From an uncultured Lachnospiraceae bacterium (GTDB taxonomy: Bacteria; Bacillota; Clostridia; Oscillospirales; CAG-272), in contig CAYOFP010000001.1 of NCBI GenBank assembly GCA_964403505.1, positions 70,548-134,547 of the forward strand: a stretch of 64,000 bases of DNA, written 5' to 3'. The position numbers and the translations under genes were made by a program. The number at the start of each line of letters is the position of its first letter. Positions within the stretch are counted from its first letter, which is position 1. Positions 6,407 through 32,889 of the stretch are shown here, one piece after another. The notes beneath the pieces are model-generated. The model made no database searches. It had not been told where the DNA came from and worked only from the letters and a program-made list of their open reading frames with translations.

Positions 6407-6732
6407 TAACAGTCGAGTATGATAAAACGACGTGTGCGGTAAGCGTGCACGGCCACGCAGGAAGCGCCGAGCCCGGATGCGATCTTGTCTGTGCGGCGTG
6501 CTCGATGCTGGTCTACGGACTCTTACAGGCGCTGACGGATCTGTGTCCCCGGTCTGCTCCCGGCAAAGGGGGCATACGGCGGTGCAGGGCGGAGCCGGGA
6601 GATGCACACATAGAGTGGCACGCCGAAGAATGGGAGAAAGCACGTGCAATGCTGATATTTGCCGCATATGCGAGCGGATTTCGTGCGCTTGCCCGTGAAA
6701 ATCCCGACTATGTGCAGTATACAGAAAAATGA
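6403..6732 (+). CDS. prp: Prp-like cysteine protease (phage homologue of the ribosomal protein L27 processing peptidase, DUF464)
   Basis: Signature VHGHAGSAEPGCDLVCAACSML (His...Cys dyad in the GHA / D-[IL]-VCA-x-[VC]-S context). 109 aa. ATGA overlap with the portal stop. Confidence 0.8.
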   Translation: MITVEYDKTTCAVSVHGHAGSAEPGCDLVCAACSMLVYGLLQALTDLCPRSAPGKGGIRRCRAEPGDAHIEWHAEEWEKARAMLIFAAYASGFRALARENPDYVQYTEK

Positions 6733-6942: not shown

Positions 6943-7902
6943 ATGAAAACATTAAAAATCGATCTGCAATTATTCTCAGACGGAGGAGAGGGCGCTGCAG
7001 CGTCCGCCGCAACAACTGATGATGTGCAGAAAGACGCAGCGCCGACAGGCGCACAGGCCGGACAAAAGGACGCACAGGTGCTTTACGGCAAGCAAGCGGA
7101 CAGCGCACCTGTTGTGCAGAAAACCGAAAAAGATGCAGAAGCTCAGGGAAAAGAGACCGCAGAGGCGACGCCTGAGTCCGAAAAGGCGCAGGACGAAGAG
7201 AGCTTTGAAGAGCTGATCAAGGGAAAGTACAAAAACGATTTTGAAAAACTGTTATCCCGCCGCTTTAAGAAAAGTGCGCAAACAGAATCGCAGAACGCCG
7301 CTATGCGTACTCTGCTCGAAAACGTCGCGATCAGCTATGGACTCGACCCGGAGTCAGACAGTCTCCTCGACGATATCAAAAAGGCACAGGATGCGGACGA
7401 GGAGCTCTATCAGAAGGCGGCATATGAAAAAGGCATCAGCCCTGAGGAATACCGCCGTGAGCTCGCAAAAGACAGGAAGATAAAAGAGCTTTCCCGAAAG
7501 GTTGAGGAAAACGAACAGCGTGAGAGAAATACTGCATGGGTACAGCATCTCAAAGCGCAGGTACCGCAGGTGCAAAAGATGTTTCCGAATTTTGATCTCG
7601 ACACCGAGATGAAAAATCCGGACTTTGCTTACCTGGTTCGTCCGGGCTCGCCGACGAGCATTGAGGCGGCGATGTACGCTGTTCATCACAGAGAGATCCT
7701 GTCGGGCGCAGTAAAGACCGCGGCACAGCAGGCGGCCGAGCAGACAGCAAACGCCGTCGCCGCAAACAAAGCACGGCCGAAAGAAGGCGGACTTTCCGCA
7801 GTACCGCCGACCGTAGTCAAGGACGATCCGGCAAAATGGAGTAAAGAGGACCTCGCAGAAATACGCCGCAGGGTCGAACGGGGAGAAAAAATAAGACTGT
7901 GA
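6943..7902 (+). CDS. Scaffolding protein with an L27-like N-terminal propeptide
   Basis: Acidic, Ala/Glu/Lys-rich and helical, 319 aa, located between the protease and the capsid gene. The N-terminus MKTLKIDLQLF-SDGG carries the LQLF motif. Confidence 0.7.
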   Translation: MKTLKIDLQLFSDGGEGAAASAATTDDVQKDAAPTGAQAGQKDAQVLYGKQADSAPVVQKTEKDAEAQGKETAEATPESEKAQDEESFEELIKGKYKNDFEKLLSRRFKKSAQTESQNAAMRTLLENVAISYGLDPESDSLLDDIKKAQDADEELYQKAAYEKGISPEEYRRELAKDRKIKELSRKVEENEQRERNTAWVQHLKAQVPQVQKMFPNFDLDTEMKNPDFAYLVRPGSPTSIEAAMYAVHHREILSGAVKTAAQQAAEQTANAVAANKARPKEGGLSAVPPTVVKDDPAKWSKEDLAEIRRRVERGEKIRL

Positions 7903-7976: not shown

Positions 7977-9008
7977 ATGAAAACATTAATGGAAAACGAA
8001 ACATATGCTTTTGTATTGAATTTACAGCTTTTTGCTGAGGGCGATACAGGTGCAACAGTTTATGACGCTTCAAGTGTGGGACTGACGACGGCAAAGCCAA
8101 CGTCAATGTCCCACGAAATGAAAACATACTATAACCGTGAGCTGCTCGAGAACGCCAATCCGAATCTGATCTACATACAGTTCGGCAAGCGCTGTCCCAT
8201 TCCGGCAGGCAGCGGTAAGCTCGCAGAGTGGCGAAAATTCGCTCAGTTTGAGAGGGTGAAGGAGCCTCTGACCGAAGGAGTCGTGCCGAAACCGAGTGCG
8301 ACGTCCGTATCGATCATCACAGCTGAAACGGCACAGTACGGCGATTGGACACCGATATCCGATGTGCTCGATCTGACCGCGATCGATAATGTCGTCCTCG
8401 AGGTAACCAAGGAGCACGGCGATAACGCCGGACGCTCGCTCGATTCCCTTGTGCGCGACGTGGTATATGCAAATTCAAACGTCATGTCGGACGGTTCGCA
8501 GAAGATCACCCCTGCACTCATTGCACAGGCGGTCGCTGCCCTCAAGCGGCAGAATGTGCCGACCATCAACAGCAAATACCACTGTATTATCCATCCGTCG
8601 GTCGCATATGACCTGATGCAGGACAGCGCATGGCTCGACGCACATAAGTACGCAAATCCCGAAAACATCTATGCCGGTGAGATAGGTGAGCTGTACGGAG
8701 TCCGGTTCTTTGAGACGACACAGGCGCCGATTCACTCGGAAAAGGTGGGAGATGCGACTGTCGCATCCAATGTCTATTACACGCCGATCTTCGGCTTAGA
8801 CGCCTACGGCGTAGTTGACGTTACGGGCGGCGGGCTCGAAACCATTGTTAAAGACAAGAGCGAGGGCGGCACGGCAAATCCGCTCAATCAGTTCAGCACT
8901 GTCGGATGGAAAGTTACCGCATTCGGTGCAAAAATGCTGTATCCCGAGCGGTTAGTCAACCTCAAGGTGACATCGTCACTTGCTGCATCTGACAATGCGA
9001 ACGTGTAA
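7977..9008 (+). CDS. Major capsid protein with an L27-like N-terminal propeptide
   Basis: 343 aa, RBS AAAGGAG, directly after the scaffold gene. The N-terminus ...AFVLNLQLF-AEGD mimics the L27 NLQFFA Prp site. Confidence 0.85.
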   Translation: MKTLMENETYAFVLNLQLFAEGDTGATVYDASSVGLTTAKPTSMSHEMKTYYNRELLENANPNLIYIQFGKRCPIPAGSGKLAEWRKFAQFERVKEPLTEGVVPKPSATSVSIITAETAQYGDWTPISDVLDLTAIDNVVLEVTKEHGDNAGRSLDSLVRDVVYANSNVMSDGSQKITPALIAQAVAALKRQNVPTINSKYHCIIHPSVAYDLMQDSAWLDAHKYANPENIYAGEIGELYGVRFFETTQAPIHSEKVGDATVASNVYYTPIFGLDAYGVVDVTGGGLETIVKDKSEGGTANPLNQFSTVGWKVTAFGAKMLYPERLVNLKVTSSLAASDNANV

Positions 9009-13106: not shown

Positions 13107-13403
13107 TCACAAAGTCTCGTAATGCGACCACATTGCGACGATTCTCACGAGCTTTTTCTCTTCGCTGATATCGTAGACCAATCTATGCTGTAAATTGATC
13201 CTGCGTGAATAAAACTCGCTGAGCGATCCTCGCAGTTTCTCGTACGGCGGAGGGGTCTGATACGGATTTTCCGACAGAATTTCAAGCAATGCGTCAACTT
13301 TTTTCTTTAAATGCGGATTTGCTTTGATCTTTTCCTTGTCTTTTTTTGCCGAGGGTAAGATCACAATTCCGTATTTACCACTCAAACGGCTCACACTCCT
13401 CAA
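13107..13403 (-). CDS. yoeB: Txe/YoeB-family mRNA interferase toxin
   Basis: PPYEKLRGSLSEFYSRRINLQHRLVY...WSHYE matches the YoeB/Txe signature. It overlaps the antitoxin stop. Confidence 0.85.
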   Translation of the reverse strand: MRSVSRLSGKYGIVILPSAKKDKEKIKANPHLKKKVDALLEILSENPYQTPPPYEKLRGSLSEFYSRRINLQHRLVYDISEEKKLVRIVAMWSHYETL

Positions 13404-13614
13404 TCGGTGTATTTTTCGCCTCCGTAAAGCGCTCCGCCATGCCGGGAGTGTTCAGCAGGTTAAAGGTCTCGAGCATTGCGTTATAATCTTCACGGCTCAT
13501 TACTACGGCGCTGCCGTCCTTCGTTGTTACATCGATCACTTCGTTAAATTCGATCGCACTGCGGATATACTCAAAAACATTCTGGCGAAATTTTGTTATC
13601 GTTGTCGTCGTCAT
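13375..13614 (-). CDS. yefM: Phd/YefM-family antitoxin
   Basis: ITKFRQNVFEYIRSA...VVMSREDYNAMLETFNLL is typical of YefM. The ATG at 13614 lies 6 nt after GGAGAGGTG. Confidence 0.85.
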   Translation of the reverse strand: MTTTTITKFRQNVFEYIRSAIEFNEVIDVTTKDGSAVVMSREDYNAMLETFNLLNTPGMAERFTEAKNTPIEECEPFEW

Positions 13615-13635
13615 TATTATCACCTCTCCATCAGT

Positions 13636-13672: not shown

Positions 13673-13685
13673 TAGTTTTTGCCGA

Positions 13686-13719
13686 GGGTTAGAGATGTCT
13701 CGTATGGTTTTGATACAAT
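13686..13719 (+). promoter_or_regulatory. Phage promoter-like motif P3 (GGGTTAGA-N20-TGa-TACAAT)
   Basis: GGGTTAGA at 13686-13693, 20 nt, then TACAAT at 13714-13719. It lies 26 nt upstream of the giant ORF and is divergent from the yefM promoter. Confidence 0.6.
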
Positions 13720-13745
13720 AACGGCAAAGAGAACGGAGGTTAAAT

Positions 13746-16700
13746 ATGAACGCAATAGACAAATATTTAGAAAAGAAAAAAGAGATGAGCGAGATCATCG
13801 GCGGTGCGATGCAAAGGCATGCAGATGAGGCACTTTCAAGCGGATTTGATAGCTTGGGAGCTGAATATGATAAACTATATAAGGCGCACCAGGCGGCTGA
13901 GAACACATGGACGAGCGCCGAGGACTTTAATGCGCTCGCAAAAAGCCGCACGGACTTTGTCGGGCGTGTGGAGGAGTTGAAAAAGTGGCTGCCGCACAGC
14001 TCATACGGCAAGGATAAACAAAATGAGCTTTACGCAAATCTTGACAGCATAAAAAAGGCGGTGGACGATTCACGTACTACTCCGAGAGGGAATGTAAGCC
14101 GTGGCAACAACTCACTCGCTTCGCTTGCTGAGAGCAGGCAGGCATATTACAGCGGATACAAGGATGCGGACGACTATGCGAAATGGTCTGCCGTCGAGGG
14201 CGGTTCACTCGAGGACATTCAGAAATTTATCGACGATGCGAAAGCCGAGGGGCGAGGGGATAAAATCGACACATACAAGATGCAGGGAGACGATTATACA
14301 ATAACTCGTCCGGGAGAGGGAGAATACCTCCGGCAGGCAGATATCGACCGTGCGCAGAAAATTTTCGACGGGAAAAAGTACACGCAGTCGGTTGACGGAA
14401 AGACCCTCACGGAGATCTACGAAAACGCTTACGCAAATTTCGAGAACGATCACGGAGAGTATTCCTATCTTTCCGACGCTGCCGCAGGGCTCGAGCGCAG
14501 TGCGCAGGAGTATGAGAGTGCGAACGAGTGGTTAAATGCGAAAAAGGCTGAGCTGGAACAAAAGCGGAATGCCTTACAGTCGGAGCTTGACAGCATTACC
14601 TTGCATGACAATGTCAACGGACATGTATTTACCTACTATTCCGAAGAAAACAAGCAAAGAGGAAAGAAGCTTGAAAGCGATATCTCGCAGGTCGACCATC
14701 AGATCGAGGCGGTCGGCGCTGATATAGAGAATATCAGCGAGTCAAGTCATGTCACAGAGTGGAATGCAGAGTATAATGCACTGCCCGAAGATGCCCGGTT
14801 TCTTATCGACTATTTAGCAAATTCGCAAGACAACCCATTCGTTGTGTACGATATAGAAGATGCGTCACGTGCGTCTGAAATGGTAGGAAAAGAATTTCCG
14901 AATATAAATGACATAGCCGAATATCTTACAGACACCGGGGTCGTAAGCGGTGGCAGCGAAGATGAAATTGCGAGGTCGGTGCAGGATTTAGTTAAACGGC
15001 GTAATAAGATAAATCATATGACAAGTTCTAAAGAAGCGGCTGAAAAACACGCTGAAAGCGCCAAAGAACATCCCGTATTAACATCGCTTGCTTCTATACC
15101 GACTTCGCTTGTATCGGGTATTGCGGCAATGCCCGAGGTTATACGGGGAACGATTGAAGGCGGCAAAGGGTACGAATACGGCGTTGACAGATATTCACCT
15201 GCTTTCGCCCCGACGAGATATACGCAGACGGTTCGTGGAACGGTCGGAGCAGGCATTGACAGCGAGGCGGGAAAATTCCTTTATCAAACGACAATGTCGG
15301 CGCTCGATTCCGCTGCGGCAATGACTGTGGGTATGGGCGTAGGTGCGGCATTCGGTGCGGCAAGCGGCGCTTCTTCTGCTGTGACGAATAAAATCATATC
15401 GGGTACGACAAATTTCATCATGTCGTCTTCTGCCGGAGCGAACGCTATATACGAAGGACTTGAAAAAGGTTATTCAAGCGAGAAGGCAGTCACGCTCGGT
15501 ATTATCTCCGGCGTGATAGAGGCGGCGAGCGAAACCTTTTCCATAGAGGCGATATTAAACAGCGCAGGGAATGACGCATTCTGGAAAACGGTCGCAAAGT
15601 CTTTCGCCGCAGAAGGCTCAGAGGAAGTAGTCTCAAATTGGGGCAATAAAATCGTAGATGCGATCGCAAACAAATCACAGGCGGAAATATATCAGTCGAT
15701 TCTATCATATCAGGACGCAGGAGAGAGCAGCGGCCAGGCGCTCGCACATGCGATCTTCGATTCGCTCGGTGAGGACGCCGCTGCATTTCTCGCAGGCGGT
15801 TTGTCAGGCGCTGCCATGGGTAGTGCGGCACAGCTCGGCAATATAGCAGGTGAACATATAGGAAATGCCATCGACACGCACAGACTTTCACGTTCCGCTT
15901 TGGATAACGACGGCGGTGTGCGCCTGGTCGAGGCGGCGCTCGAGCTTCCTGAAGGAAATACCGCACGCAAAGCCGCAGAGAAATACTCGGACGGCAATAA
16001 GAATGTAAGCAAGCATGACGCCGCCGTGATGATGCGTGAGGTCAACCGGAATCTGAGAAAGCAGATCTCTGCGCAGACGGAAAGTGCGGCAAAACAGGTA
16101 ATTGCAGACGAGCTCTCCGAACGGTACGGCATTACTGAATCTGATAAGCTTTCCGATATGATGGAGACGGCGTACCGTGCGCTGACCGGGCAGGAGCTGA
16201 GCCCGGACGAGCGTGCGTTATATGAGCAAAGCGAACAGATACGCGAGATCGTACAGGATATGCAGGGTGACCCGGACGGGAAGTTCGCCCGTTTTTTCAC
16301 AGAAACGACAACCGATGCGGCGATCTCTGCGACAGAACAAGCGATGCAGACCCGGGAAACGATCGCGGGTGTAGAGAGCGGAAGCACAAAAGCGCTCGGC
16401 AGTATTGTGCGCCCGTATATCGGCAAAGGAAATCAGAAGGTCGTACGCGGAACGAAAATCACGGCGATCAATGCCGACGGTACATTTGAGATGAGTACGG
16501 TCGATAACAAGGGTGCGGATGCGGGTACGGTTACCATAAGTACCGCCGACTTATCCTCAAAGGTGCGGAGTATTTATGACACAGTCATCGAGAGCACGGA
16601 CAATGCGAATATCGCAAATGCCATCATACAGGCGGCAGCGACTGACCGCAGGGTCGTGGCTCAGATAAGTCCGGAGTTGGTTTCGGCGGTATCGGACATA

Positions 16701-19700
16701 GCACGCTGTGGGTTCTCCCTGTCTGACAGCGGTATTGCGATGTTAGCAGGCGTAAATACTGCATCGTGGGAGAGGGCGGACAATACTCTGAAGCAGGCGA
16801 TATATAGCGCAACTAAAAAAGGCAACTCTGACGTAGGTGCGGTATATTCTTCGGTCACACGGGAGGATGTCGTGCAAGCTTATGCCGCATCCGACAAGCT
16901 CGGAACAAAGCATGCGGCAAATGCCATGCTTCGGCTGATCGAACGAACCGCCGAGCGGTACGGTGTGCAGGTCGTTTTTGCCGATCTCGCAAACGGATAC
17001 AAAGGCGGTCACATCGCCGGCACAAACAGAATCGTCCTCGGCATGGATATTGATGCAGGACTGCTCACCCGAACAATGGGACACGAGATGTTCCACTATC
17101 TGAAAGGACTGAACGGCGCGCTCTCAGGGCAGTTACAATCTGACGTGATAACGTGGCTTAAGGACACGGGCAAATATGATGCGGTATATGCACAGTTTGA
17201 GGAAAACTACAGCGAGGAAACCGCCCATCTGTCAGAGGCGAAAAAACGTGCATATCTCGAGGAAGAGATAGCGGCAGATTCCTGCTTTGACGCACTCTCA
17301 AATGAGCGTTTTCTCGGCGATTTTTACGTTCAGACCGCACAAAAGAAAAACGGAGCGGAATTTTTGCAGAAGCTCGCTGACTTTTTCACTTCCCTTTCGC
17401 AAATGCTTCGTGATGCGGTGGCGAACTTCACACAGAGATATAAATCGAACGAGCTTATAAAGGCGCTTTCGCAGGATGCAGATATGCTCGAGCACATCAA
17501 CGAGAAATTCCGGGAGCTTCTTGCAAGCGCAAAGTCGGCGGAAAATGAAAAAAGCGCTGCGAATGCGCAGCGTGAGGAGACAATACGCTTTTCCCGGATG
17601 AATGAGAAATCATTCGAGGAAAATGTAGATGCTGTCCTTGAAGCGAGCGATGCATATGCGAAACAGCACAAAGGAGACTTTGTTCGCGTAATGGAGCATA
17701 CGCCGGCGGTAATCCTCGATCATGTCGAGGATGCAGCGGATCTCGAGGTTATTATTCAATACCACTCGTTGTATCTGGAGACAAGACACGAAGGCGTACT
17801 CGAAGGAAATTATCACAATTTAGGACGAGAGATCGCAAAAAACCTCCCACAGTATATATCCGACCCGGATACAATCGTGCGGATGGACAACGATAGGCTC
17901 AATCTGTTTGCTACCATACAGGATCAAAAAAAGAATATACGCATTGTTTCGGTCGAGATGAATACGGTTCTGGACATTAACAGCAAATACCGTAAATACA
18001 ATCTTGTGTTAACCGTTTTCCCTGCGAAGGCGAACTATGTGAGTAACATAATAGCAAAACACGGAGTAAAAGTAGAATATGAAAAAGAAGGCCTTGCGCA
18101 AGTGAATCCCCAGCTGCATAAATCTCTGGGTATTGTTAACGCAAAACCTTCTACTGATAGTATATCCGATTCCGGGCAAGATGTCAACACTTCAGGGCAA
18201 GAAAATTCCGGAAATGTCCGCTATCAGATGTCAGCTGATAAATATTCATATGATGAGTTGGTAAGCAAGCCGGATATGCATGTCACGCAAATCAGCGATC
18301 GAAATATCCCGGAGCCGTCAAATCTTGCTCGCAAAGGAATTGTCAGTCATGCGCTCGAAAATGCCGAAAAGGTCGGAAAACGTCGGGAAGACGGCAATAT
18401 CAGCATTCATGTGAATGATACTGACTCTGATGTTATTTTATCCCGCAAAGGACTCGAGCACGGACTTGACCGCAGATTTTCGGTCAATGCACCTGTTACG
18501 CTTCAAGCAGGCAAGATACTGCAAAATGCCATCCGCATAAACGAAATGAACCCGAAAAAGAAAACGGCGACAGGAAGCAGTATCTTTATCGGTATGGCCA
18601 AAAACACAAAAAACGAACCGTATGTCGTGCGATTTGTAGTCAATGAGTTTTCCGGCGAGGTCGAGGATGTCAATGTCTTATATGCACTCAATGCAAAAAA
18701 AGAGCCGGGTGCATTGCTGCCTCCAGTCACGAAAAATTCCGCTCCGGATACCGACTCTACTATCAGTATATCCGATTTGCTCGACTTTGTCAACAGGTAT
18801 TTTCCGGATATTTTACCCGAAAGTGTTTTGCAACATTACGGATATACTGCACGTCCTGACGGCGTGCTCGGTAAAAGTGTCCGCTATCAAAAGTCGGCCG
18901 ACAGTGCGCAGGAAGCGGAGATCCGCAAACTGCGGCAGGATTATGAGCTTACCAAACTGCAAAACGATCTGATACGCAGTAAGTTGAAGGTATGGGAACA
19001 TAAAGTGCCGAGCCCGAAGGCTCTGCGACGGTACATGAATGATGTCATGCAGCGGTACGGCGTGCAGTATGACGATGCCGGGAAATTACAGGCGTTTGAA
19101 AAGCTTACTGAATTTTACGGGTACTTAGTGCGCAGTAAGACACCGAATATGGTGATCGTGCAGGATATGGCCTTTGACCTCGCCCGGGATATGATCGCCA
19201 ATTCGGCGGAATTAGAAAAAACGCCGTATGACAGCGTGGAGAGGGAGTTCCGCCGGACATTGCGTGAGACTGGCGTGCAGATCACCGAAGCGCAAAAGCG
19301 CGAGATCATAAACACCTATGGGACGATGACCAACTTCCGCCGGGAAAGCGGAGGTATGATCCGTATCAATAGCAACAGCAAGCTTTTTGTTGCCGATATT
19401 ATAGAGGAAGCACGGAGCATCTACGACATCAAAACGGATCACGAGGATGAATTCCTGGTCGAGCTGCTACCGTACATGAAAGCGAGCGCCGATGCGGCGC
19501 GCGGAGTGTGGGTCGATCCGTATAACGGGGACGCACAGATCGAGCACATGGCGGCGATGGACCTTGCCGCTACTCTGCTGGATGCGCTGTACGACCCGAA
19601 TATCGTGCCGGTGCGAAAGACCGTCACAGATATAGAAGCGGAAAAGCGGTACCGCGCTCTGATGCAGCAGTACAACTATTACGAAAAACGCATCGGGAAG

Positions 19701-22700
19701 CTGAACGACCGGGTAAGGCAGGCACGTGCCGAAGGCAGGCAGGCAGTGCAGAACGAACGCGGGCACAGGCAGGCAGCAATACGTCTGATGGCAGAACACT
19801 ATGCACAAATGACCGAAAAGGCACGCGAGCGACGCAAGCAAAGCGAAACGCGTGCAAAGATCGACCGACTGATGAATCAGATGAACGCACGACTTTTCAG
19901 ACCGACAAAGGAAAAGTATGTTCCTCAGAATATGCAATGCGCGATCATCGGAGTCCTGGAAGCGGCAAACCGCTTTGACGGCAATCGGTCTGAGCGACTC
20001 GCAAAATATGATCGCATGATCGCCGTAGCTGATCCTGAACAGCGCGAGCAGCTCGCAAGGATCCGTTCGGTCGTCGCCGAAGGAGGACAGAGCATAGGAG
20101 ACGCGATCAGCGCAGTCAGGCAGATGTATGACGCATACGCCGCAGGAGAAAACAGCGCACAAAGCGCAGCATACGATCCGCTCGTATCAAGAATGCTCGA
20201 GAGGGCTGAACAGGAACTGAAGGGAGCAAATGCAAACGATCTGAGTGCGGCACAGCTCGACACGCTATGGCGTGCGCTCAAAGCGACCGATCAGGTCGTA
20301 CGGGATGCGGTCAAGCTCAAAGGCAGTCGAATCAAAAAGGATGTTTATGAGGCAGGACGGGCGCTCATCGCCGAAACAAGGGCGATAAAAGGCTCGAAAA
20401 ACGGAATCGCATCATCGTTTCTGCAATCGATGCTCTCGCCTCGCTCATTTTTCGAGAGGTTGGGCGGATTCGCAAAAAACTCGTTGTGGGTCGCAATGTA
20501 TGATGACTTAAACGACGCACAGAGAGAAATGCTGAATATCAGAATGCAGGGGACGATGCTCTTTAACGACCTGATTACGGGAAAGGAAAATGCCGAGGCG
20601 CTTCGCAGGATGGTAAGCGAAAAGCATGCCGTCGACATCGGTCTGACTGACGCTGAAGGCGAGGCGATCAAGCTCACGCACGATCAGCTGATAGCGCTTT
20701 ACCTACATATGCAGAGCGATGACAACCTGCGCCATATGGAGTCCGGCGGCATCAGCATCCGCACAAAGAACGGGAAGATCCGTGCGGTCGGTGTGGGACA
20801 GAAGCTGGTCGAGGCAAATAATGCGATCCACGACGCACGTGCGCGAATCTCCGCCGCAGAGTGGCAGACGGGCACTGAGCAATGGCAGCACATGAGCGAC
20901 GAGCAAAAGCGTCCGATCCTCGATGAGTGGCAGGCGGCAAGAGAACAGCTCGAGCAGGCGGAACAGGAGACGAACCGTATCCGTGAGGAGCACATCGCAG
21001 GCCTCGAGGGGATGCGCGAAAAGATCGAGGCGGCGCTGACCGACTACGACCGGGAATGGATCAGTGCGGCGCAGGAATTTTTCCGTTACAGTGCATCGCT
21101 GATCGACGAGACAACCTACGACCGATACGGTTTCCACCGTGATCTCATCGAGAATTATTTCCCGATCCTGACTGATACGGACTATAACAAAACAGAGCTT
21201 GAAAGCTTCGGGAGCGAGATCACCCTCGACGGGCTCGGATTCCTTAAGGACCGTGTGACCTCGTACAATCCGCTCGTCCTCTCCGGCGTGACGGATACGG
21301 TCAGCCGTCATCTCGACGGAATCGCAAAGTATGCAGGAATGTCGGGAGCACTCGACAATTTCAAAAAAGTATACAACATGATCGATTCGGGTTATTCCGA
21401 CAGCGTGAAAAATGCGGTCAACGATGTTTTCGGCAATCGCAACGGCGGTGCGTACCTCGAAAAGATCATAAAAGACATGATCGGGGCGACGGGCGGTGAC
21501 GCAACGCTGGGCAAGCAGATCGCAGGGATCCTGCGAGGCGGACTTGCTAAATCGGCGCTGATACTCAATCCACGGGTTGCACTCTTACAGACTGCTTCCT
21601 ATCCGACGGCTGCTGCCGAGCTCGGATGGAGACCGCTCGCCCGTGCGCTTGCACGCAAAGACGGCGACAGTCTGCCGGTATTCAGCCGTGCGGATCAGGA
21701 GCTGATCGCAAAATACTCGCCGCTTTTATGGTACCGATTACAGGGATACACGACCGAAAGGCTCGACGGTCTTTCGGGAAAAGCGAAAGTAAGCACAAAG
21801 ATAAAAGACAACACCGTCATAAAGAAAGGCCTGCTCGGTTGGATCAATGCGATGGATGCGGCAACGGTCGGCAGGCTGTGGTATGCGGCGCAGTATTATG
21901 TCGACGAGCAGTTTGGGTATCTTGAGCATGGAAGCGAGGAATGGTATGAGCAGGTAGCACAGGCGTTTAACCGCACGGTCGAACGCACACAGCCGAACTA
22001 TACTACACTGCAACGCACGGCGATCGCACGGTCGCAAAACGAATTTGTAAAGTCGATCGCTATGTTTACGACACAGAGGCTGCAAAACTTCAATATCGCA
22101 TACTCTGCGGCGGCACGGCTGATGCGATATCAGCACGATTTCGGAAAAGGGTGCGGAGGCGTGACGAAAACAGATCTACGTAATGCACGCACCGCACTTA
22201 AAAACTCGCTTTCTTCCCTTATCGTGGCAGGCGTAGATATCGCAGTTTCACGGGTGCTGGTGCAGGCGTTACTTCACAACCTCAAAGCATACCGTGACGA
22301 TGACGACGAGCTGAGCGCACAAAGCGTCGCCGTCGGAACAGCGATGTATTTCAGTGAGAGTATGGCGAGCAATGTGCTTTTCGGAAGCGAAATATACCGA
22401 ATGATAGAAGCGTGTATTACGGGCGGTAAGTACTATACGACCGAGCTATCCGGAATCGGGACGGCTTTTGATATCGCCGGAGATATGGTTCAAAGCGTAC
22501 AAAATCTTATCAAAGGTGTTAAAAAAACTGATGAGGAGTCGGCTGACGATAGATGGGAAGGTGCTGTCAAGAGCGCAAAGAAGCTCGTCGGAGATCTATG
22601 CATCGCTTTCGGCATCCCTGCCCGCAATGTCGGCATGATCGTCGGTGCGGTCGGCGGACATATGAACAGTATAAAGGAAATCGCTTACGGCACTATCGAC

Positions 22701-23435
22701 GGAAAGTGGAAAAAATACTTTGACGACGACCTCGGGACACTCTCCTATGCACAAAAGGTAAAACAAATCGATGTACGCGAGGACGACCCGGAAGAGGTCG
22801 CACGCAAACTGCGTGAGCTGTATGACGGTGCATCGGATGAAGATGAGCGTAACGATATTGAGGAGGCAATCTTAAAGTACTTCCGCAAGAAGTGGGAGAA
22901 AGAGCCGGCTGGGCGGAATGAGTACTTTACCACATTGCACCGCACGGGGTTATGGGGTGAATCCTTCCTCAACGGAAAATTCCGTGAATGGGAGTACAAA
23001 AAGGACACAGGCGAGAAATCGTTCGGCGAATCGACAGACATATACAAGGCCATCCGAGACGGCGGAGATATAGATGCGGCGATCGAGGAATACAAGACAT
23101 TTATTCCTCAAACGGGCGACGAAGCCGAGAAGAAGGTGCATGAGACGGTAAGGAAACAAGTCGGCAAGAATCTGACAGACGGCAAGCTCGATGAGGACAC
23201 TGCGCTTTCCCTGCTCACGCAATATGCAGGTCAAAAACCGTCCGAGGCGGCAAAGACCATCGCAGGATTTAACAAATCGGCCGATCAGGCACGCATCAAA
23301 GAGCGATTCATGAATGGAGAGCTTGACTATGATGGTGCGGTCGACGCCCTGCGTGATATCGGAGATACACGCAAGGATGCAGAGAAGTGTGTCGACGGAT
23401 GGCAGGACGAGTGGAAAGATTATTTCCACGAATAA
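13746..23435 (+). CDS. Giant (3229 aa) multidomain phage protein; candidate virion-packaged polyvalent or ejection protein with an HExxH metallopeptidase motif
   Basis: A single uninterrupted ORF with RBS GGAGG. Gly/Ala/Ser-rich hydrophobic segments map to ~15075-15870. HEMFH is at 17082-17096 in the context RIVLGMDID...TMGHEMFHY. Two compact domains lie at ~17686-18090 and ~18390-18715. The long C-terminal half is helical. Confidence 0.8.
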   Translation: MNAIDKYLEKKKEMSEIIGGAMQRHADEALSSGFDSLGAEYDKLYKAHQAAENTWTSAEDFNALAKSRTDFVGRVEELKKWLPHSSYGKDKQNELYANLDSIKKAVDDSRTTPRGNVSRGNNSLASLAESRQAYYSGYKDADDYAKWSAVEGGSLEDIQKFIDDAKAEGRGDKIDTYKMQGDDYTITRPGEGEYLRQADIDRAQKIFDGKKYTQSVDGKTLTEIYENAYANFENDHGEYSYLSDAAAGLERSAQEYESANEWLNAKKAELEQKRNALQSELDSITLHDNVNGHVFTYYSEENKQRGKKLESDISQVDHQIEAVGADIENISESSHVTEWNAEYNALPEDARFLIDYLANSQDNPFVVYDIEDASRASEMVGKEFPNINDIAEYLTDTGVVSGGSEDEIARSVQDLVKRRNKINHMTSSKEAAEKHAESAKEHPVLTSLASIPTSLVSGIAAMPEVIRGTIEGGKGYEYGVDRYSPAFAPTRYTQTVRGTVGAGIDSEAGKFLYQTTMSALDSAAAMTVGMGVGAAFGAASGASSAVTNKIISGTTNFIMSSSAGANAIYEGLEKGYSSEKAVTLGIISGVIEAASETFSIEAILNSAGNDAFWKTVAKSFAAEGSEEVVSNWGNKIVDAIANKSQAEIYQSILSYQDAGESSGQALAHAIFDSLGEDAAAFLAGGLSGAAMGSAAQLGNIAGEHIGNAIDTHRLSRSALDNDGGVRLVEAALELPEGNTARKAAEKYSDGNKNVSKHDAAVMMREVNRNLRKQISAQTESAAKQVIADELSERYGITESDKLSDMMETAYRALTGQELSPDERALYEQSEQIREIVQDMQGDPDGKFARFFTETTTDAAISATEQAMQTRETIAGVESGSTKALGSIVRPYIGKGNQKVVRGTKITAINADGTFEMSTVDNKGADAGTVTISTADLSSKVRSIYDTVIESTDNANIANAIIQAAATDRRVVAQISPELVSAVSDIARCGFSLSDSGIAMLAGVNTASWERADNTLKQAIYSATKKGNSDVGAVYSSVTREDVVQAYAASDKLGTKHAANAMLRLIERTAERYGVQVVFADLANGYKGGHIAGTNRIVLGMDIDAGLLTRTMGHEMFHYLKGLNGALSGQLQSDVITWLKDTGKYDAVYAQFEENYSEETAHLSEAKKRAYLEEEIAADSCFDALSNERFLGDFYVQTAQKKNGAEFLQKLADFFTSLSQMLRDAVANFTQRYKSNELIKALSQDADMLEHINEKFRELLASAKSAENEKSAANAQREETIRFSRMNEKSFEENVDAVLEASDAYAKQHKGDFVRVMEHTPAVILDHVEDAADLEVIIQYHSLYLETRHEGVLEGNYHNLGREIAKNLPQYISDPDTIVRMDNDRLNLFATIQDQKKNIRIVSVEMNTVLDINSKYRKYNLVLTVFPAKANYVSNIIAKHGVKVEYEKEGLAQVNPQLHKSLGIVNAKPSTDSISDSGQDVNTSGQENSGNVRYQMSADKYSYDELVSKPDMHVTQISDRNIPEPSNLARKGIVSHALENAEKVGKRREDGNISIHVNDTDSDVILSRKGLEHGLDRRFSVNAPVTLQAGKILQNAIRINEMNPKKKTATGSSIFIGMAKNTKNEPYVVRFVVNEFSGEVEDVNVLYALNAKKEPGALLPPVTKNSAPDTDSTISISDLLDFVNRYFPDILPESVLQHYGYTARPDGVLGKSVRYQKSADSAQEAEIRKLRQDYELTKLQNDLIRSKLKVWEHKVPSPKALRRYMNDVMQRYGVQYDDAGKLQAFEKLTEFYGYLVRSKTPNMVIVQDMAFDLARDMIANSAELEKTPYDSVEREFRRTLRETGVQITEAQKREIINTYGTMTNFRRESGGMIRINSNSKLFVADIIEEARSIYDIKTDHEDEFLVELLPYMKASADAARGVWVDPYNGDAQIEHMAAMDLAATLLDALYDPNIVPVRKTVTDIEAEKRYRALMQQYNYYEKRIGKLNDRVRQARAEGRQAVQNERGHRQAAIRLMAEHYAQMTEKARERRKQSETRAKIDRLMNQMNARLFRPTKEKYVPQNMQCAIIGVLEAANRFDGNRSERLAKYDRMIAVADPEQREQLARIRSVVAEGGQSIGDAISAVRQMYDAYAAGENSAQSAAYDPLVSRMLERAEQELKGANANDLSAAQLDTLWRALKATDQVVRDAVKLKGSRIKKDVYEAGRALIAETRAIKGSKNGIASSFLQSMLSPRSFFERLGGFAKNSLWVAMYDDLNDAQREMLNIRMQGTMLFNDLITGKENAEALRRMVSEKHAVDIGLTDAEGEAIKLTHDQLIALYLHMQSDDNLRHMESGGISIRTKNGKIRAVGVGQKLVEANNAIHDARARISAAEWQTGTEQWQHMSDEQKRPILDEWQAAREQLEQAEQETNRIREEHIAGLEGMREKIEAALTDYDREWISAAQEFFRYSASLIDETTYDRYGFHRDLIENYFPILTDTDYNKTELESFGSEITLDGLGFLKDRVTSYNPLVLSGVTDTVSRHLDGIAKYAGMSGALDNFKKVYNMIDSGYSDSVKNAVNDVFGNRNGGAYLEKIIKDMIGATGGDATLGKQIAGILRGGLAKSALILNPRVALLQTASYPTAAAELGWRPLARALARKDGDSLPVFSRADQELIAKYSPLLWYRLQGYTTERLDGLSGKAKVSTKIKDNTVIKKGLLGWINAMDAATVGRLWYAAQYYVDEQFGYLEHGSEEWYEQVAQAFNRTVERTQPNYTTLQRTAIARSQNEFVKSIAMFTTQRLQNFNIAYSAAARLMRYQHDFGKGCGGVTKTDLRNARTALKNSLSSLIVAGVDIAVSRVLVQALLHNLKAYRDDDDELSAQSVAVGTAMYFSESMASNVLFGSEIYRMIEACITGGKYYTTELSGIGTAFDIAGDMVQSVQNLIKGVKKTDEESADDRWEGAVKSAKKLVGDLCIAFGIPARNVGMIVGAVGGHMNSIKEIAYGTIDGKWKKYFDDDLGTLSYAQKVKQIDVREDDPEEVARKLRELYDGASDEDERNDIEEAILKYFRKKWEKEPAGRNEYFTTLHRTGLWGESFLNGKFREWEYKKDTGEKSFGESTDIYKAIRDGGDIDAAIEEYKTFIPQTGDEAEKKVHETVRKQVGKNLTDGKLDEDTALSLLTQYAGQKPSEAAKTIAGFNKSADQARIKERFMNGELDYDGAVDALRDIGDTRKDAEKCVDGWQDEWKDYFHE

Positions 23436-23443: not shown

Positions 23444-23479
23444 AAAAAACCAACCGGGCAATCGTCCGGTTGGTTTTTA
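23444..23479. terminator. Bidirectional hairpin terminator
   Basis: Stem AACCAACCGG / CCGGTTGGTT (10 bp), flanked by an A-run and a T-run. It lies between the convergent giant ORF and the GNAT gene. Confidence 0.75.
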
Positions 23480-23483: not shown

Positions 23484-24035
23484 CTATATTAATTTTGTGT
23501 ATTGATTGTGTGTTCCGTCGTTTTGCAAGAAGCTAAACCCGTAACCCTCATAAAACCCTCGGATTTTTTCCTCGTCGCCACATTCGACTAACGCTACTTT
23601 ACATGGAAGCATAGCGTCTATTTCGCGTATGACTTCAAATGCAAAATCAAGAATTTCCGTTCCTTTTAAATCGGAACGAATATATTTGCCATCTTTTAAT
23701 TCGACGCGCTTTCCGAGCTGACCGATCAATACAAAGTTTATGGTTTCCGCTTTGCTGTTTCCGCTCGTGAATTTTTTAACTTTGCTACGACTGATTTGTT
23801 CTGCGACAAGACTCTTTGAAGATAATGTAAAGTACCCTTCGATTTTAAGCTCATCGCGACGAAACGACTCTTCATTTAACAATAAATATACATGACAAAG
23901 CTTTCTTTTGATGAAATCCTCTGCCTTGTCCTGCAAAAACATTTCGATATCTTTATCCTGCGCACATCGAAACGAAGAAAGAGCCGCCCTCAATACATCG
24001 TTAAAAACGGTATCTTTTGCGGCTCTCGAAAACAT
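23484..24035 (-). CDS. GNAT acetyltransferase of the toxin type (TacT/KacT-like)
   Basis: N-terminal FRCAQDKDIEMFLQDKA matches the F-x-C-G...L-x-x-FL signature of GNAT toxins. The C-terminal ALVECGDEEKIRGFYEGYGFSFL is a GNAT core. Confidence 0.65.
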   Translation of the reverse strand: MFSRAAKDTVFNDVLRAALSSFRCAQDKDIEMFLQDKAEDFIKRKLCHVYLLLNEESFRRDELKIEGYFTLSSKSLVAEQISRSKVKKFTSGNSKAETINFVLIGQLGKRVELKDGKYIRSDLKGTEILDFAFEVIREIDAMLPCKVALVECGDEEKIRGFYEGYGFSFLQNDGTHNQYTKLI

Positions 24036-24040
24036 ATCGC

Positions 24041-24208
24041 TCAGTGGGACAAGAACTTCTTTAATCCTTCTCGCCCCCTACTTAAAGAAGATGATTTTTT
24101 ATTAACAACCGTTTTTCTTTCCGGCGCATTATCTAATTCTTTTTTGAGCTTACGGAATGTCTTCTCGTCTTTTATGATAAATTGTTTTGTAATAGACGAC
24201 GTTGCCAT
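24041..24208 (-). CDS. Small basic protein upstream of the GNAT gene (candidate antitoxin, non-canonical)
   Basis: 55 aa from the ATG at 24208, 8 nt after AAGGAGGTG. Its stop is 5 nt before the GNAT start. No clear DUF1778/RHH signature was seen. Confidence 0.5.
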   Translation of the reverse strand: MATSSITKQFIIKDEKTFRKLKKELDNAPERKTVVNKKSSSLSRGREGLKKFLSH

Positions 24209-24238
24209 AATTACACCTCCTTGCTTATCTGTACTATT

Positions 24239-24267
24239 ATTATACACAAAGCGAGCACTTATGTCAA
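24239..24267 (-). promoter_or_regulatory. Sigma-A consensus promoter of the GNAT cassette
   Basis: On the minus strand: TTGACA (24262-24267), 17 nt, TATAAT (24239-24244). Confidence 0.7.
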
Positions 24268-29384: not shown

Positions 29385-30254
29385 ATGCTGCCGATCGTAC
29401 AGAACCTTATCCCGGAGTCGCTTTGGAATCTCAAAGCGACATACGGGATGGTGCCGGAAAAACTGTGTATTCATAACACCGCAAACGATGCGCCGGCAGA
29501 AAACGAGGCGCGCTATGTACACAATAATCCTGCTGCGACCTCGTACCATTTTGCAGTAGACGATGTACAGGCAGTACAGATCATACCGTTCGACCGTAAT
29601 GGATGGCACGCAGGAGATGGATCATACGGTCCGGGAAACCGCAAGAGCGTCGGAATTGAAATATGTTACTCGCTCTCAGGCGGAAAACGATTCGAGAGGG
29701 CGCAGGAAAACGCCGCTGAGCTGTGTGTGCGATTGATGCACGAGTTCGGATGGGGACTTGACCTTAGTCGGATCACAAAGCACGAGGACTATGCGAATAA
29801 GCACTGCCCGCATCGTACACTTGACGATTACGGGTGGGATTATTACCTTGCACTTGTAAAAGAAAAATATGAAGAATTATACCCGGAGGATATACCTATG
29901 ACAACGTCAGAAAAGAAAGCTTTTGATGCGCTCTCAAAAAATGTAGATGCGCTGATTAAGCAAAATGATACGCTACAGAAAAACCTTACAGCATATGCTA
30001 AAGAGAATACACAGCTTAAAAAGGATTTTGAAAATATAAGCAAAAAAATTGTACCATGTATTACAAGTGTAGACTGGGATGCACATATTACGGATGCGAT
30101 GGGAGGAAAAGAGGCTGTCGCAATGCTTGATAAGCTCAGAGCAAACGGTGATTTTGCTGGTAAGGACTCAGCACATTTCGGACTTTCCGAACAGATGGTA
30201 CGCATGATGCTGATCTTCTATCGGATTCTCAATCGACTCGGAATTTATAAATGA
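29385..30254 (+). CDS. Endolysin, N-acetylmuramoyl-L-alanine amidase (Amidase_2/PGRP type)
   Basis: IHNTANDAPAENEARYVHNN...SYHFAVDD...NGWHAGDG...SVGIEICY...HEDYANKHCPHR. The ATG at 29385 is 1 nt after the holin stop. The C-terminal ~110 aa are coiled-coil-like and not a wall-binding module I recognise. Confidence 0.9.
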   Translation: MLPIVQNLIPESLWNLKATYGMVPEKLCIHNTANDAPAENEARYVHNNPAATSYHFAVDDVQAVQIIPFDRNGWHAGDGSYGPGNRKSVGIEICYSLSGGKRFERAQENAAELCVRLMHEFGWGLDLSRITKHEDYANKHCPHRTLDDYGWDYYLALVKEKYEELYPEDIPMTTSEKKAFDALSKNVDALIKQNDTLQKNLTAYAKENTQLKKDFENISKKIVPCITSVDWDAHITDAMGGKEAVAMLDKLRANGDFAGKDSAHFGLSEQMVRMMLIFYRILNRLGIYK

Positions 30255-30331
30255 TTTCACGGTAATCGTAGCTAATCCTCGCATCGAAAAGGAAGTTAGT
30301 ATGGGGGCAGACGACCAATCTCTGACATCAT

Positions 30332-30372
30332 AAAAAATCACACACAGATTTGTACTTCTGTGTGTGATTTTA
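30332..30372. terminator. Bidirectional terminator at the end of the lysis cassette
   Basis: Stem ATCACACACAGA / TCTGTGTGTGAT (12 bp perfect), flanked by A6 and T4. Confidence 0.8.
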
Positions 30373-30381
30373 ATATTCAAA

Positions 30382-31578
30382 TTATTCTTTGGCTTCGCTT
30401 ATGGCCGAGGAATCTTCTGTTGAAATCTCTACACCGTCCGATGTATCGATATTTACATTCACATTTATATCCTTGGCAGGCTCAGAATTATCCGTATCTG
30501 ATTGAGATTCCTCGAAACTCTTGGAATCGCCTTTTTCGGGGCATGTGAATTGCCAATAGATCCCCAATGTCATTATAACGATTAGAACAGTACAGATAAC
30601 AATCGCAACCCACCCCGGAAAATGTTCTTGCCACCATCTGGTTATTGTGGATCCACCATCTTGTTCTCTGTCTGCGCCTTTACCGCTAAGTTTTTCAATA
30701 AATCGAAACATCACATATATCAGGCAGAAAGAAATTAAGCCAACGAGTGCCGCAACGCTTATCAGGCGAAAGAAATTAGCGTCTTTTACGCTTGCAAGAA
30801 TCGAAGACGAGTAAACCCAGCTCCCAACAATCGTAACCATAATTGCCGCAAAAATGCCTAATATTGTGACGCTCATTTCAGAGTTTTTCCGAGTTATCTC
30901 CGCCATTTTAACCTCGACTGCTTTTTTAACCTCGTCCTTTGCTGATTCTTTAATATTTTCTTGTGAGTCTTTCAAAGCATTCTCAACTACTTCATTTGCT
31001 TTTCTCTCGGCTACTTCATTTGCTTTTCTCTCGGCTACTTCATTTGCTTTTCTCTCGGCTACTTCATCTGTCTTTCTCTCAGCTGCTTCTTCTAATCTCT
31101 GTACGATTGAATTCGATGCTCTTTCAGAATGAATGTCATAAAAACGTTTAAAAATATCATGATGTTCAATGATGTCTCCAATATACACAAGAACAATTTT
31201 GAGAACTCGAGGTAAATTATTGTTAGAATGATTTTCCTTATAATACTTTTCACATTTATCGCAAAAGGATAAATAAGCGCCGCCGCTAGTAAATTCAAAT
31301 GGCTGCGGAATATATGGCTGAGATATAGATATATTCTGATAAAAATTTTTAATATAAATACCTACCGAATCCTGAATAAATGTTCTGACATGAAATTCCA
31401 TTTCATTTTCATCTGAATTCAATATCTCAATATCATCCGAGGTTAAATTATCCATCCATTTTTTTGCGTCTATGATTGATGTATCCAAAGAATCTTTTGA
31501 CGTAAATATAATTTCACAAAAAGCAGTAACTATTTGCTTAAGTTGTTCATAATTCTGTGCTTTTCCATTGTCCCTCAT
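30382..31578 (-). CDS. Membrane protein: N-terminal soluble domain, coiled coil with AERKANEV repeats, three TM helices, acidic tail. Candidate toxin/effector.
   Basis: 398 aa. The three TM helices are VTILGIFAAIMVTIVGSWVY, FFRLISVAALVGLISFCLIYVMF and GWVAIVICTVLIVIMTLGIYWQF. The gene is AT-rich. It lies 33 nt downstream of the 241-aa gene. Confidence 0.6.
   Translation of the reverse strand: MRDNGKAQNYEQLKQIVTAFCEIIFTSKDSLDTSIIDAKKWMDNLTSDDIEILNSDENEMEFHVRTFIQDSVGIYIKNFYQNISISQPYIPQPFEFTSGGAYLSFCDKCEKYYKENHSNNNLPRVLKIVLVYIGDIIEHHDIFKRFYDIHSERASNSIVQRLEEAAERKTDEVAERKANEVAERKANEVAERKANEVVENALKDSQENIKESAKDEVKKAVEVKMAEITRKNSEMSVTILGIFAAIMVTIVGSWVYSSSILASVKDANFFRLISVAALVGLISFCLIYVMFRFIEKLSGKGADREQDGGSTITRWWQEHFPGWVAIVICTVLIVIMTLGIYWQFTCPEKGDSKSFEESQSDTDNSEPAKDINVNVNIDTSDGVEISTEDSSAISEAKE
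30987..31082 (-). repeat. In-frame 24-bp tandem repeat (3 perfect units plus 1 degenerate)
   Basis: CTACTTCATTTGCTTTTCTCTCGG occurs three times (30987-31058), followed by CTACTTCATCTGTCTTTCTCTCAG. It encodes AERKTDEV followed by (AERKANEV)x3. Confidence 0.95.
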
Positions 31579-31611
31579 ATTTATTGCCTCTCCTTAAAAT
31601 GCATTCCTTTT

Positions 31612-32337: not shown

Positions 32338-32476
32338 AACATATTTGTTTTCGTCTTAATAGCGTGACATTTAATCGGACGCATAACACGAATAACAATT
32401 AATGCTAACCTAAAAATTCGGCTTAGTCAAGAAAGATATGTCGTATTCTGGTGTACAAGCAACAAAAATACTCTAA

Positions 32477-32529
32477 GAAAAAACAAAACACCCATCTCTA
32501 ACAGAGACAGGGCGCCAAAAGAGATCGGG
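32477..32529 (-). terminator. Candidate terminator/attenuator inside the long leader of the island operon
   Basis: On the minus strand: CCCGATCTCT...AGAGATGGG (9 bp with a 1-nt bulge and a large loop), then TGTTTTGTTTTTTC. Confidence 0.3.
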
Positions 32530-32669
32530 CAAAACGATTTTAATTATGGGTCATTCTTAAAATCTATATGCTTAACCTCGGTAGGAATATTATGACAACA
32601 GCATTCAAAAATGCCGATCCCCTACTGTCTTTGGCGTCGCGTATTAATGTTTTCATTAATGTATCTTAT

Positions 32670-32888: not shown

Positions 32889-32889
32889 T

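Follow-up and report, generated by a model that had tools for sequence, protein, structure and literature searches.

The 64,000-nucleotide stretch of DNA analysed here, referred to below as the window, belongs to contig CAYOFP010000001.1 of an uncultured Lachnospiraceae bacterium, and all positions are given relative to its first nucleotide. A prophage with podovirus-like head, fibre and lysis genes extends from position 1 to ~30300, and the remainder of the window, about half of it, is host chromosome. The longest open reading frame (ORF) of the window lies on the plus strand of the prophage (13746 to 23435), starts with ATG and encodes a protein of 3229 residues, hereafter called the giant, with a mass of ~355 kDa by a rule-of-thumb estimate. 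Upstream of it and on the same strand are a ribosome-binding site, GGAGG, read from the sequence 6 nucleotides 5' of the start codon (13735 to 13739), and a promoter-like motif, GGGTTAGAGA-N14-TTTGATACAAT (13685 to 13719), which the prophage late region contains in four copies. Downstream, a GC-rich hairpin with A and T runs on both sides, as in a two-way terminator, starts 10 nucleotides past the stop codon (23445 to 23478). A preliminary description of this DNA, made without database searches, had reported a 9.7-kb ORF with its own promoter-like motif and terminator. Its coordinates and descriptions of the ORF features proved correct when checked, and the ORF, the ribosome-binding site, the motif and the hairpin were all confirmed.

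A search of 5.8 billion proteins identified 109 giant relatives of 2060 to 4380 residues, the best of which (P0001) is 37% identical to the query over 46% of the query length. The domains recognised among these relatives are ART-PolyVal, PBECR3, PBECR5, MuF_C, LPD3, LPD23, DUF6782 and Peptidase_M78, with an occasional helicase or methylase; Iyer et al. 2017 (PMC5512222) defined the ART-PolyVal, PBECR, MuF_C and LPD types of domain as families of polyvalent proteins. Several effector-type domains are combined in the single 3229-residue polypeptide of the giant as well, namely a HExxH...E domain (M1), a MuF_C/PBECR module (M2) and an alpha/beta module (M3). The diagnostic Pfam cut-offs are not reached in the giant itself (26.6 bits against 27.6 for MuF_C and 19.8 against 27 for LPD3), whereas relatives and their matching segments pass them. 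The whole protein gave only noise when compared by phmmer with PDB sequences, and no match was found in NCBIfam. Judged from its predicted domains, the giant falls into the class that Iyer et al. 2017 describe as phage-type polyvalent proteins, one of the options proposed beforehand; the MuF_C/PBECR match, the weak LPD3 similarity, the conserved zincin-like HExxH...E and the PolyVal domains of the relatives all point the same way.

When the relatives were mapped onto the giant, conservation was found in residues ~430 to 700, covered by ~70 relatives, and in residues ~1950 to 2990, covered by 50 to 98 of the 109, while the centre varies and residues 1 to 430 show little conservation. In an independent set of 100 full-length relatives, all of them representatives of 50%-identity clusters, M1 was covered in 78, the conserved region starting at residue ~430, which is rich in glycine, alanine and serine, in 56, M2 in 11, M3 in 3 and residues 1 to 430 in none. 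Since M1 is present in 61 of the 109 and in 78 of the 100 relatives, it belongs to the conserved part of the protein and is not a swappable module. Three parts make up a frame that is common to the family and carries variable effector cassettes: the Gly/Ala/Ser-rich region, the zincin-like HExxH...E domain in the interior and, towards the C-terminus, a helical region of ~1000 residues.

Conserved frame and variable cassettes

The N-terminal region (residues 1 to 430, 13746 to 15035) is charged, and most of its length is common only to P0001 and the giant, four other relatives overlapping its C-terminal part from residue ~226 onwards. It had been described as helical and probably is; the evidence for this consists of weak matches to coiled-coil-type Pfam families. 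It is followed by the Gly/Ala/Ser-rich region (residues ~430 to 720, 15033 to 15905), in which the preliminary description had placed Gly/Ala/Ser-rich segments at ~15075 to 15870. The composition bears this out, as the fraction of the three residues amounts to 0.47 and 0.44 in residues 501 to 700 compared to 0.14-0.33 elsewhere. This region matches positions 379 to 566 of phrog_22978 (E = 2e-31), and it has no match in Pfam, NCBIfam or PDB.

M1 (residues ~1045 to 1270, 16878 to 17555) contains the sole HExxH motif of the giant, HEMFH (residues 1113 to 1117, 17082 to 17096), for which 0.074 occurrences are expected by composition. The residues H1113, E1114 and H1117, as well as E1174 (17265 to 17267) within the sequence EEEIAAD, are invariant or nearly so, and HExxH is kept in 59 of the 61 relatives in which the M1 profile was detected. 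In the AlphaFold2 model, the HExxH motif and the glutamate lie on separate helices with a predicted local distance difference test score (pLDDT) of 78-92. The metallopeptidase core of polyvalent proteins, as given by Iyer et al., is composed of three strands, the HExxH helix, the glutamate helix and variable inserts (PMC5512222). The predicted layout of M1, with a helix at positions 35-52 and strands at 56-60, 68-71 and 76-80 of the model, placed ahead of the HExxH helix and predicted at pLDDT < 50, would agree with this core.

The first cassette, M2 (residues ~1320 to 1440, 17703 to 18065), matched MuF_C in a segment scan over residues 1355 to 1440 (17808 to 18065) with E = 6.8e-6, and PBECR2 with E = 0.019. 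In P0047, P0096 and P0101, the segments aligned to M2 score 54.5, 39.1 and 36.2 bits on MuF_C, above the cut-off. In an alignment with five relatives, of which three pass the MuF_C cut-off, His1357 (NYHNLG, 17814 to 17816) and Thr1423 (LVLTVF, 18012 to 18014) correspond to an invariant His and an invariant Ser/Thr, the pair given by Iyer et al. as the active site of PBECR RNases (PMC5512222). M2 is therefore predicted to be a metal-independent RNase of the MuF_C/PBECR type (BECR fold) with an intact His/Thr site. The AlphaFold2 model of M2 shows a helix and then several strands at pLDDT < 50. The module is present in 18 of the 109 relatives, and in P0001, the closest relative, its place is taken by PBECR3, which indicates cassette exchange.

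The second cassette, M3 (residues ~1499 to 1705, 18240 to 18860), is a well-conserved alpha/beta module of ~210 residues modelled at pLDDT 80-91. It has homologues in 12 relatives, with 31-48% identity, and its residues 1551 to 1635 match LPD3 (PF18798) with E = 9.6e-4. Identification as LPD3 was nevertheless rejected, because the score of 19.8 bits is below the cut-off of 27 and because P0032 contains both a true LPD3 domain (residues 1697 to 1823, 61.9 bits) and an M3 homologue (residues 2625 to 2862) as separate segments; M3 is thus not LPD3 proper and belongs to no assigned family. Two compact modules resembling small nucleases and LPD domains had been pointed out at ~17686 to 18090 and ~18390 to 18715. 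The first of them indeed contains the MuF_C/PBECR2 match, whereas the LPD assignment of the second did not hold for LPD3 proper.

The C-terminal region (residues ~1950 to 2990, 19593 to 22715) is all-helical. The AlphaFold2 model of residues 1940 to 3010 is almost entirely composed of helices, with a mean pLDDT of 70.5 and a predicted template modelling score of 0.68, in agreement with the very long helical C-terminal region described earlier. Invariant residues of this region are Y2471, Q2615, G2667, D2704 and Q2749. Two hydrophobic helices span residues 2821 to 2844 and 2951 to 2970, the first of them being followed by a conserved RDDDD cluster (residues 2850 to 2854). The region matches phrog_22978, which has no annotated function, and no Pfam, NCBIfam or annotated PHROG family. 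A phmmer search of 1.84 billion cluster representatives (50% identity) with this region yielded 3077 relatives at E <= 0.001, of which 2452 had E <= 1e-10. Among the matches listed, which are the best 150 of the 3077, proteins of 2000 to 4800 residues carry the match near their C-terminal end. When the model was compared with the predicted viral structures of BFVD, 55 matches were obtained at E <= 0.001. Most of the named ones are C-terminal pieces of giants labelled PolyVal ART, LPD-containing, MuF C-terminal or nuclease and come from gut or environmental phage contigs, and the weaker ones include 'structural proteins' of two flavobacterial phages. The protein ends with an acidic, charged and poorly conserved tail (residues ~2990 to 3229, 22713 to 23432).

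A short motif at the cassette borders

The sequence [IV]R[FY][SQ] occurs three times in the giant, each time at a border between two of the regions described above. The first copy, IRFS (residues 1280 to 1283, 17583 to 17594, in the context TIRFSR), lies between M1 and M2, the second, VRYQ (residues 1491 to 1494, 18216 to 18227, NVRYQMSA), between M2 and M3, and the third, also VRYQ (residues 1712 to 1715, 18879 to 18890, SVRYQKSA), between M3 and the C-terminal region. Three sites compare with 0.17 expected, and this number was reached in 0 of 2000 shuffles. All three are located in stretches of the model with pLDDT < 50 that separate confidently predicted domains.

As the motif had been chosen after seeing the data, it was tested on the independent set of 100 relatives. 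In these proteins, [IV]R[FY]S was found at 60 sites, compared to 8.7 expected (~7-fold), and 55 of the 60 are at a relative position of 0.3-0.7 along the protein; the preferred context is (N)(P)D-[IV]-R-[FY]-S-x-[KR]. Individual relatives also have the motif next to recognised domains. In P0004, a copy at residue 1670 parts ART-PolyVal (1497 to 1665) from PBECR5 (1670 to 1864), and the M3 homologue lies between copies at residues 2190 and 2407. In P0032, copies at residues 1667 and 1871 bracket LPD3, and another at residue 2443 follows ART-PolyVal, which ends at residue 2436. A term search of Iyer et al. (PMC5512222) found no linker or cleavage motif, the word 'linker' occurring 0 times. The giant itself adds a member to a kind of protein that is already known; no description of the conserved frame or of the junction motif seems to exist.

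Two direct repeats are present at the DNA level at the 3' ends of both cargo cassettes. A 27-nucleotide repeat (18212 to 18238 and 18875 to 18901, 81% identity) covers the second and third junctions, and a 22-nucleotide repeat (18150 to 18171 and 18756 to 18777, 86% identity) lies 60-120 nucleotides upstream of each of them. The 22-nucleotide repeat also accounts for two apparently strong promoter matches on the minus strand within the ORF (18187 to 18159 and 18793 to 18765), which fall on this coding repeat and were dismissed as coincidental.

Prophage context of the giant gene

The late genes of the prophage are arranged in the order TerL, P22-like portal, Prp protease, scaffold-like protein, major capsid protein, p667, p350, giant, BppU_N fibre, GP4 gp80-like fibre and endolysin, the latter being an Amidase_2 protein. 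The product of p667 (667 residues) belongs to phrog_511, which is annotated 'internal virion protein', and that of p350 has 350 residues. The combination of a P22-like portal with a GP4-like fibre indicates a short tail, and family scans found no tail-tube, sheath or tape-measure family in the prophage genes or in the giant. No type IV secretion system genes are present around the giant.

The four copies of the promoter-like motif, GGGTTAGARA-N14-T(T/G)TG-N-TAYRNT, are all on the plus strand, at 2347, 6779, 13687 and 24303, and are located ahead of, or at the beginning of, the packaging/portal block, the scaffold/capsid block, the giant and the fibre/lysis block, respectively. Its core, GGTTAGARA, is found 4 times in the window compared to 0.65 times by chance, and 4 copies were reached in 0 of 100 shuffles. 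The unusual -35-like element suggests that a phage-specific late activator or sigma factor may recognise these sequences.

Between the p350 gene and the giant, a minus-strand cassette (13107 to 13623) encodes a YoeB-like toxin (98 residues) and a Phd/YefM antitoxin (82 residues), with a perfect TTGACA-17-TATAAT promoter at 13672 to 13644. In the relatives the giant starts ~4-12 nucleotides after the preceding structural gene, so that the separate transcription unit is local to this prophage, in which the YoeB/YefM cassette has been inserted. The stand-alone block proposed in the preliminary description is thus an accurate picture of this prophage and not of its relatives. Just 3' of the giant, again on the minus strand and with a perfect TTGACA-17-TATAAT promoter (24267 to 24239), is a second inserted pair of ORFs, of 183 and 68 residues (23484 to 24247). 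The pair has no match in Pfam, NCBIfam or PADLOC, and YoeB/YefM gave nothing in PADLOC either. By eye, the C-terminus of the 183-residue protein looks GNAT-like (GFYEGYGF), and on this ground the pair would be another toxin-antitoxin-like insertion.

The surroundings of the giant were compared with those in four relatives. In L002 (encoding P0004) and L085 (P0016), the gene order is TerL, P22-like portal, Prp, scaffold-like protein, capsid protein, a protein of ~600 residues, a protein of ~300-420 residues, giant, lysis genes and integrase, with a fibre gene after the giant in L002. In L003 (P0037), a prophage of Massiliimalia timonensis, the giant is located between the portal/Prp block and the capsid genes, after a p350 homologue and upstream of the scaffold-like and capsid genes. 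In L086 (P0019) it comes after the lysis genes at the prophage end. Homologues of the portal, the scaffold-like protein, the capsid protein, p186 and p667 were found in L002, L003 and L085, and p350 homologues are directly upstream of the giant in L002 and L003. The giant is encoded beside virion genes both here and in three relatives; its place is between head and fibre genes here and in L002, and varies in L003 and L085. As it follows the lysis genes in some relatives, its position in the late region is not fixed across the family. A giant gene at the prophage end has also been described in phi24B and in prophages of Clostridium clostridioforme LM41 (PMC11318856).

The Prp-type cysteine protease, the scaffold-like protein and the major capsid protein are encoded on the plus strand at 6403 to 6732, 6943 to 7902 and 7977 to 9008, respectively. 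An L27/80alpha-type Prp cleavage motif is present near the N-terminus of the scaffold-like protein (MKTLKIDLQLFS|DGG) and of the major capsid protein (FVLNLQLFA|EGD), and Prp probably matures both of them, at LQLFS and LQLFA, respectively. Processing of the giant by Prp was considered and dropped, since LQLF[AS] is absent from the giant.

Further prophage genes encode a TerS-like protein and a rolling-circle-type initiator. The latter (phrog_3584, REP_ORF2-G2P) is at the left prophage edge (128 to 2093, plus strand), together with a 240-residue ORF whose C-terminal part matches C-5 cytosine methylase; replication modules of this kind are unusual among tailed temperate phages. A low-GC stretch at 30000 to 34000 (0.37-0.40 compared to ~0.50 elsewhere), which separates the endolysin gene from clpC, may include the end of the prophage or a further insertion. 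It holds genes for a 398-residue protein with a weak DUF2207_C match and for ORFs of 241 and 207 residues; the 241-residue ORF has no family match, and the 207-residue ORF was scanned against PADLOC only. The host half, from ~33 kb and on the minus strand, encodes ClpC, FtsW, a penicillin-binding protein with PASTA domains, an SLH-domain protein (930 residues) and UvrC. ClpC is at most 65% identical to that of any species representative, the best ones being from uncultured Ruminococcus, Acutalibacteraceae and other Clostridia metagenome-assembled genomes, which places the host in a poorly sampled Oscillospirales-like lineage. No relative turned up either when the C-terminal region was used as the single query against a collection with one genome per species, so that the source species appears to have no close representative in that collection. 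No near-identical DNA was found among GenBank phages, and tblastn of both halves of the giant against the same phages returned four weak matches to unannotated human-faecal fragments.

Possible role of the giant and alternative explanations

Iyer et al. predict that phage polyvalent proteins whose genes accompany virion genes are packaged, injected and processed by their metallopeptidase (PMC5512222). The giant resembles these proteins in being the product of a giant multidomain gene among virion genes, with a zincin-like HExxH hub, a predicted MuF_C/PBECR RNase cassette, relatives containing ART-PolyVal or LPD domains, and cassette exchange (PMC5512222). It differs from the families described there by the Gly/Ala/Ser-rich region, the HExxH clade and the ~1000-residue helical C-terminal region, for which no Pfam, NCBIfam or annotated PHROG family was matched. 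A second precedent is gp47 of the podovirus phi24B, a polyvalent protein of 2811 residues with LPD5, LPD1, LPD38 and MuF-C domains. According to a 2026 preprint, proteomics detected it abundantly in virions, it cannot be seen in the reconstruction, and its proposed role is that of an ejection protein (bioRxiv 10.64898/2026.04.10.717836). Like the giant, gp47 is a giant polyvalent protein with MuF-C in a temperate podovirus with GP4-like tail features; unlike the giant, its other domains are LPD5, LPD1 and LPD38 and its host is Gram-negative. Outside the MuF_C-type module the two proteins show no detectable homology, and a weak match of M2 to phrog_616 was the one similarity obtained. From the conserved position among virion genes and the analogy to gp47 we infer that the giant may be packaged and injected.

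The account that we favour, and consider reasonably probable, is that of a late-expressed polyvalent protein which is packaged and ejected, the conserved regions serving in loading and passage and the in-cis zincin releasing the cassettes at the junction motifs. According to this account, the giant would be made late, from the same type of promoter as the head and fibre genes, would be loaded into the procapsid by means of its conserved regions and would be expelled through the portal and the short tail, ahead of or together with the DNA. The conserved regions would aid the crossing of the envelope, and the in-cis metalloprotease would cut at the junction motifs and thereby release the cassettes into the cytoplasm, where the M2 RNase may cut host RNAs, either defence-related RNAs or mRNAs, and so favour infection.

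Several observations weigh against this account. M1 has no match to a peptidase family in Pfam, and no peptidase family is recorded for the 61 relatives that contain it. Its profile matched only designed helical repeat proteins in PDB, which were taken as spurious, and Foldseek of the central AlphaFold2 model against PDB gave a best E of 0.2, with weak NTF2-like matches that were not accepted. A comparison by hhalign with the metallopeptidase region of the N4 virion RNA polymerase gave a probability of 0.2%, i.e. no relation. In the absence of recognised peptidase similarity, the term zincin-like refers to motif, conservation and predicted topology; of the zincin-type motif in a metallopeptidase-like context claimed in the preliminary description, HEMFH, its conserved residues and the putative third-ligand glutamate stand, whereas membership in a known peptidase family was not recovered by sequence, profile or fold. 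The strands of M1 and the whole of M2 are modelled with low confidence, and the MuF_C match of M2 remains 1 bit under the Pfam cut-off. The junction motif was noticed in the giant post hoc, its strict form is not universal, being absent or degenerate at some borders in the relatives, and it might just as well mark a recombination junction, or be an element of structure, instead of a cleavage site; the 27- and 22-nucleotide repeats found where the cassettes end are consistent with recombination. A Foldseek comparison of the C-terminal model with PDB gave nothing significant (best E = 0.38), and neither this search nor phmmer against PDB matched the solved podovirus ejection proteins (T7 gp14-16, P22 gp7/16/20, N4/DEV). 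An hhalign comparison of phi24B gp47 with the family alignment had a probability below 1%, the C-terminal region not aligning. 

By a different explanation, the giant would be a late effector or assembly factor that stays outside the virion and acts in the producing cell, e.g. against defences or competing elements. This explanation can draw on L086, in which the giant comes after the lysis genes at the prophage end, and on C. clostridioforme, in which giant ORFs at the prophage 3' end have been described only as accessory (PMC11318856). We nevertheless regard it as quite improbable, given that the giant adjoins p350 and p667 homologues in the head-to-fibre block of three relatives and has the late promoter motif, and that the virion is where phi24B gp47 and the known polyvalent proteins of phages are located. 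If the giant is in the virion, it could still be a pure ejection or conduit protein that forms the channel through cell wall and membrane, with a HExxH domain directed against the cell wall and small modules that are structural or vestigial and not released as effectors. Most of the protein consists of conserved regions, which include hydrophobic helices, a separate set of ejection proteins was not positively identified in the late region, and the authors of the phi24B study propose such a role for gp47 (bioRxiv 10.64898/2026.04.10.717836). Yet M2 has conserved RNase active-site residues, the cassettes are exchanged for ART, PBECR and other enzyme domains, as is typical of conflict effectors and not of a channel, the zincin has no likeness to a known peptidoglycan hydrolase, and the prophage has its own amidase, so that this role seems unlikely.

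A tape-measure or other tail structural protein would account for the great length of the giant, its mostly helical nature and its Gly/Ala/Ser-rich stretch, and some of the BFVD matches are from contigs labelled Siphoviridae or Myoviridae. The preliminary description had itself named a conventional tape-measure protein without enzymatic modules as a possible outcome of profile searches; these found no tape-measure family and did give the MuF_C/PBECR match. Tape-measure, tail-tube, sheath and chaperone families are absent from the giant and its neighbours, and the virion genes comprise a P22-like portal and one GP4-like fibre protein. By the textbook rule of 0.15 nm per residue, 3229 residues would correspond to a tail of ~480 nm, and the centre of the giant contains enzyme-type modules. 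This candidate was rejected as very improbable. A virion RNA polymerase of the N4 or crAss-like type was suggested by the size of the giant and its podovirus context, which recall the 3500-residue N4 enzyme. No RNA-polymerase match was found in Pfam, PHROGs, NCBIfam, PDB sequences or PDB folds, and no DxDxD-type motif is among the listed conserved C-terminal columns; with no recognisable polymerase module in any of these libraries, this candidate was likewise rejected, as having next to no probability. The N4 virion RNA polymerase does resemble the giant in that it is a podovirus protein of ~3500 residues which is packaged and injected and which, according to Iyer et al. (PMC5512222), contains a zincin-like metallopeptidase domain. 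It differs in that the giant has no RNA-polymerase module and M1 no likeness to the N4 metallopeptidase region.

The packaged and ejected polyvalent protein that we favour also has counterparts among head-internal proteins with effectors, including MuF_C/PBECR, namely the MuF (SPP1 gp7) polymorphic toxin fusions and DarB and DdrB of phage P1. Of these, DdrB undergoes proteolytic cleavage and has a metallopeptidase domain (PMC5512222). In contrast to the MuF fusions, neither a MuF N-terminal domain (PF04233) nor a portal fusion was detected in the giant, which is far larger.

A likeness in working logic exists between the giant and the MARTX toxins of Vibrio. In these toxins, glycine-rich N- and C-terminal regions are thought to carry the centre across the membrane, the centre is a mosaic of effectors, and an internal protease cuts between the effectors. 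The MARTX protease is a cysteine protease, the toxins are secreted by a type I system and not packed into capsids, and their sequences are unrelated to the giant. By analogy, we tentatively suggest that the Gly/Ala/Ser-rich region, the in-cis zincin and the C-terminal region might together form a self-delivering frame used by thousands of phage lineages, comparable to a capsid-loaded MARTX toxin. In such a frame, the zincin might cut at [IV]R[FY]S, and the motifs and DNA repeats might be the seams along which cassettes are swapped.

Giant ORFs of this type occupy about a fifth of many gut Clostridia prophage genomes and are usually left 'hypothetical'. In C. clostridioforme prophages, for instance, giant 8-kb ORFs with LPD3 similarity have been reported, and they make up ~20% of the LM41 prophage genomes (PMC11318856). 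If the frame does deliver cargo, it could be used to load chosen proteins into phage particles. The shared frame, the conserved HExxH...E and the junction motif at the cassette borders provide testable handles on these proteins, i.e. cut sites, a residue to mutate and candidate anti-defence effectors, and the junction motif together with HExxH...E makes the long-standing proposal of self-processing by polyvalent proteins directly testable.

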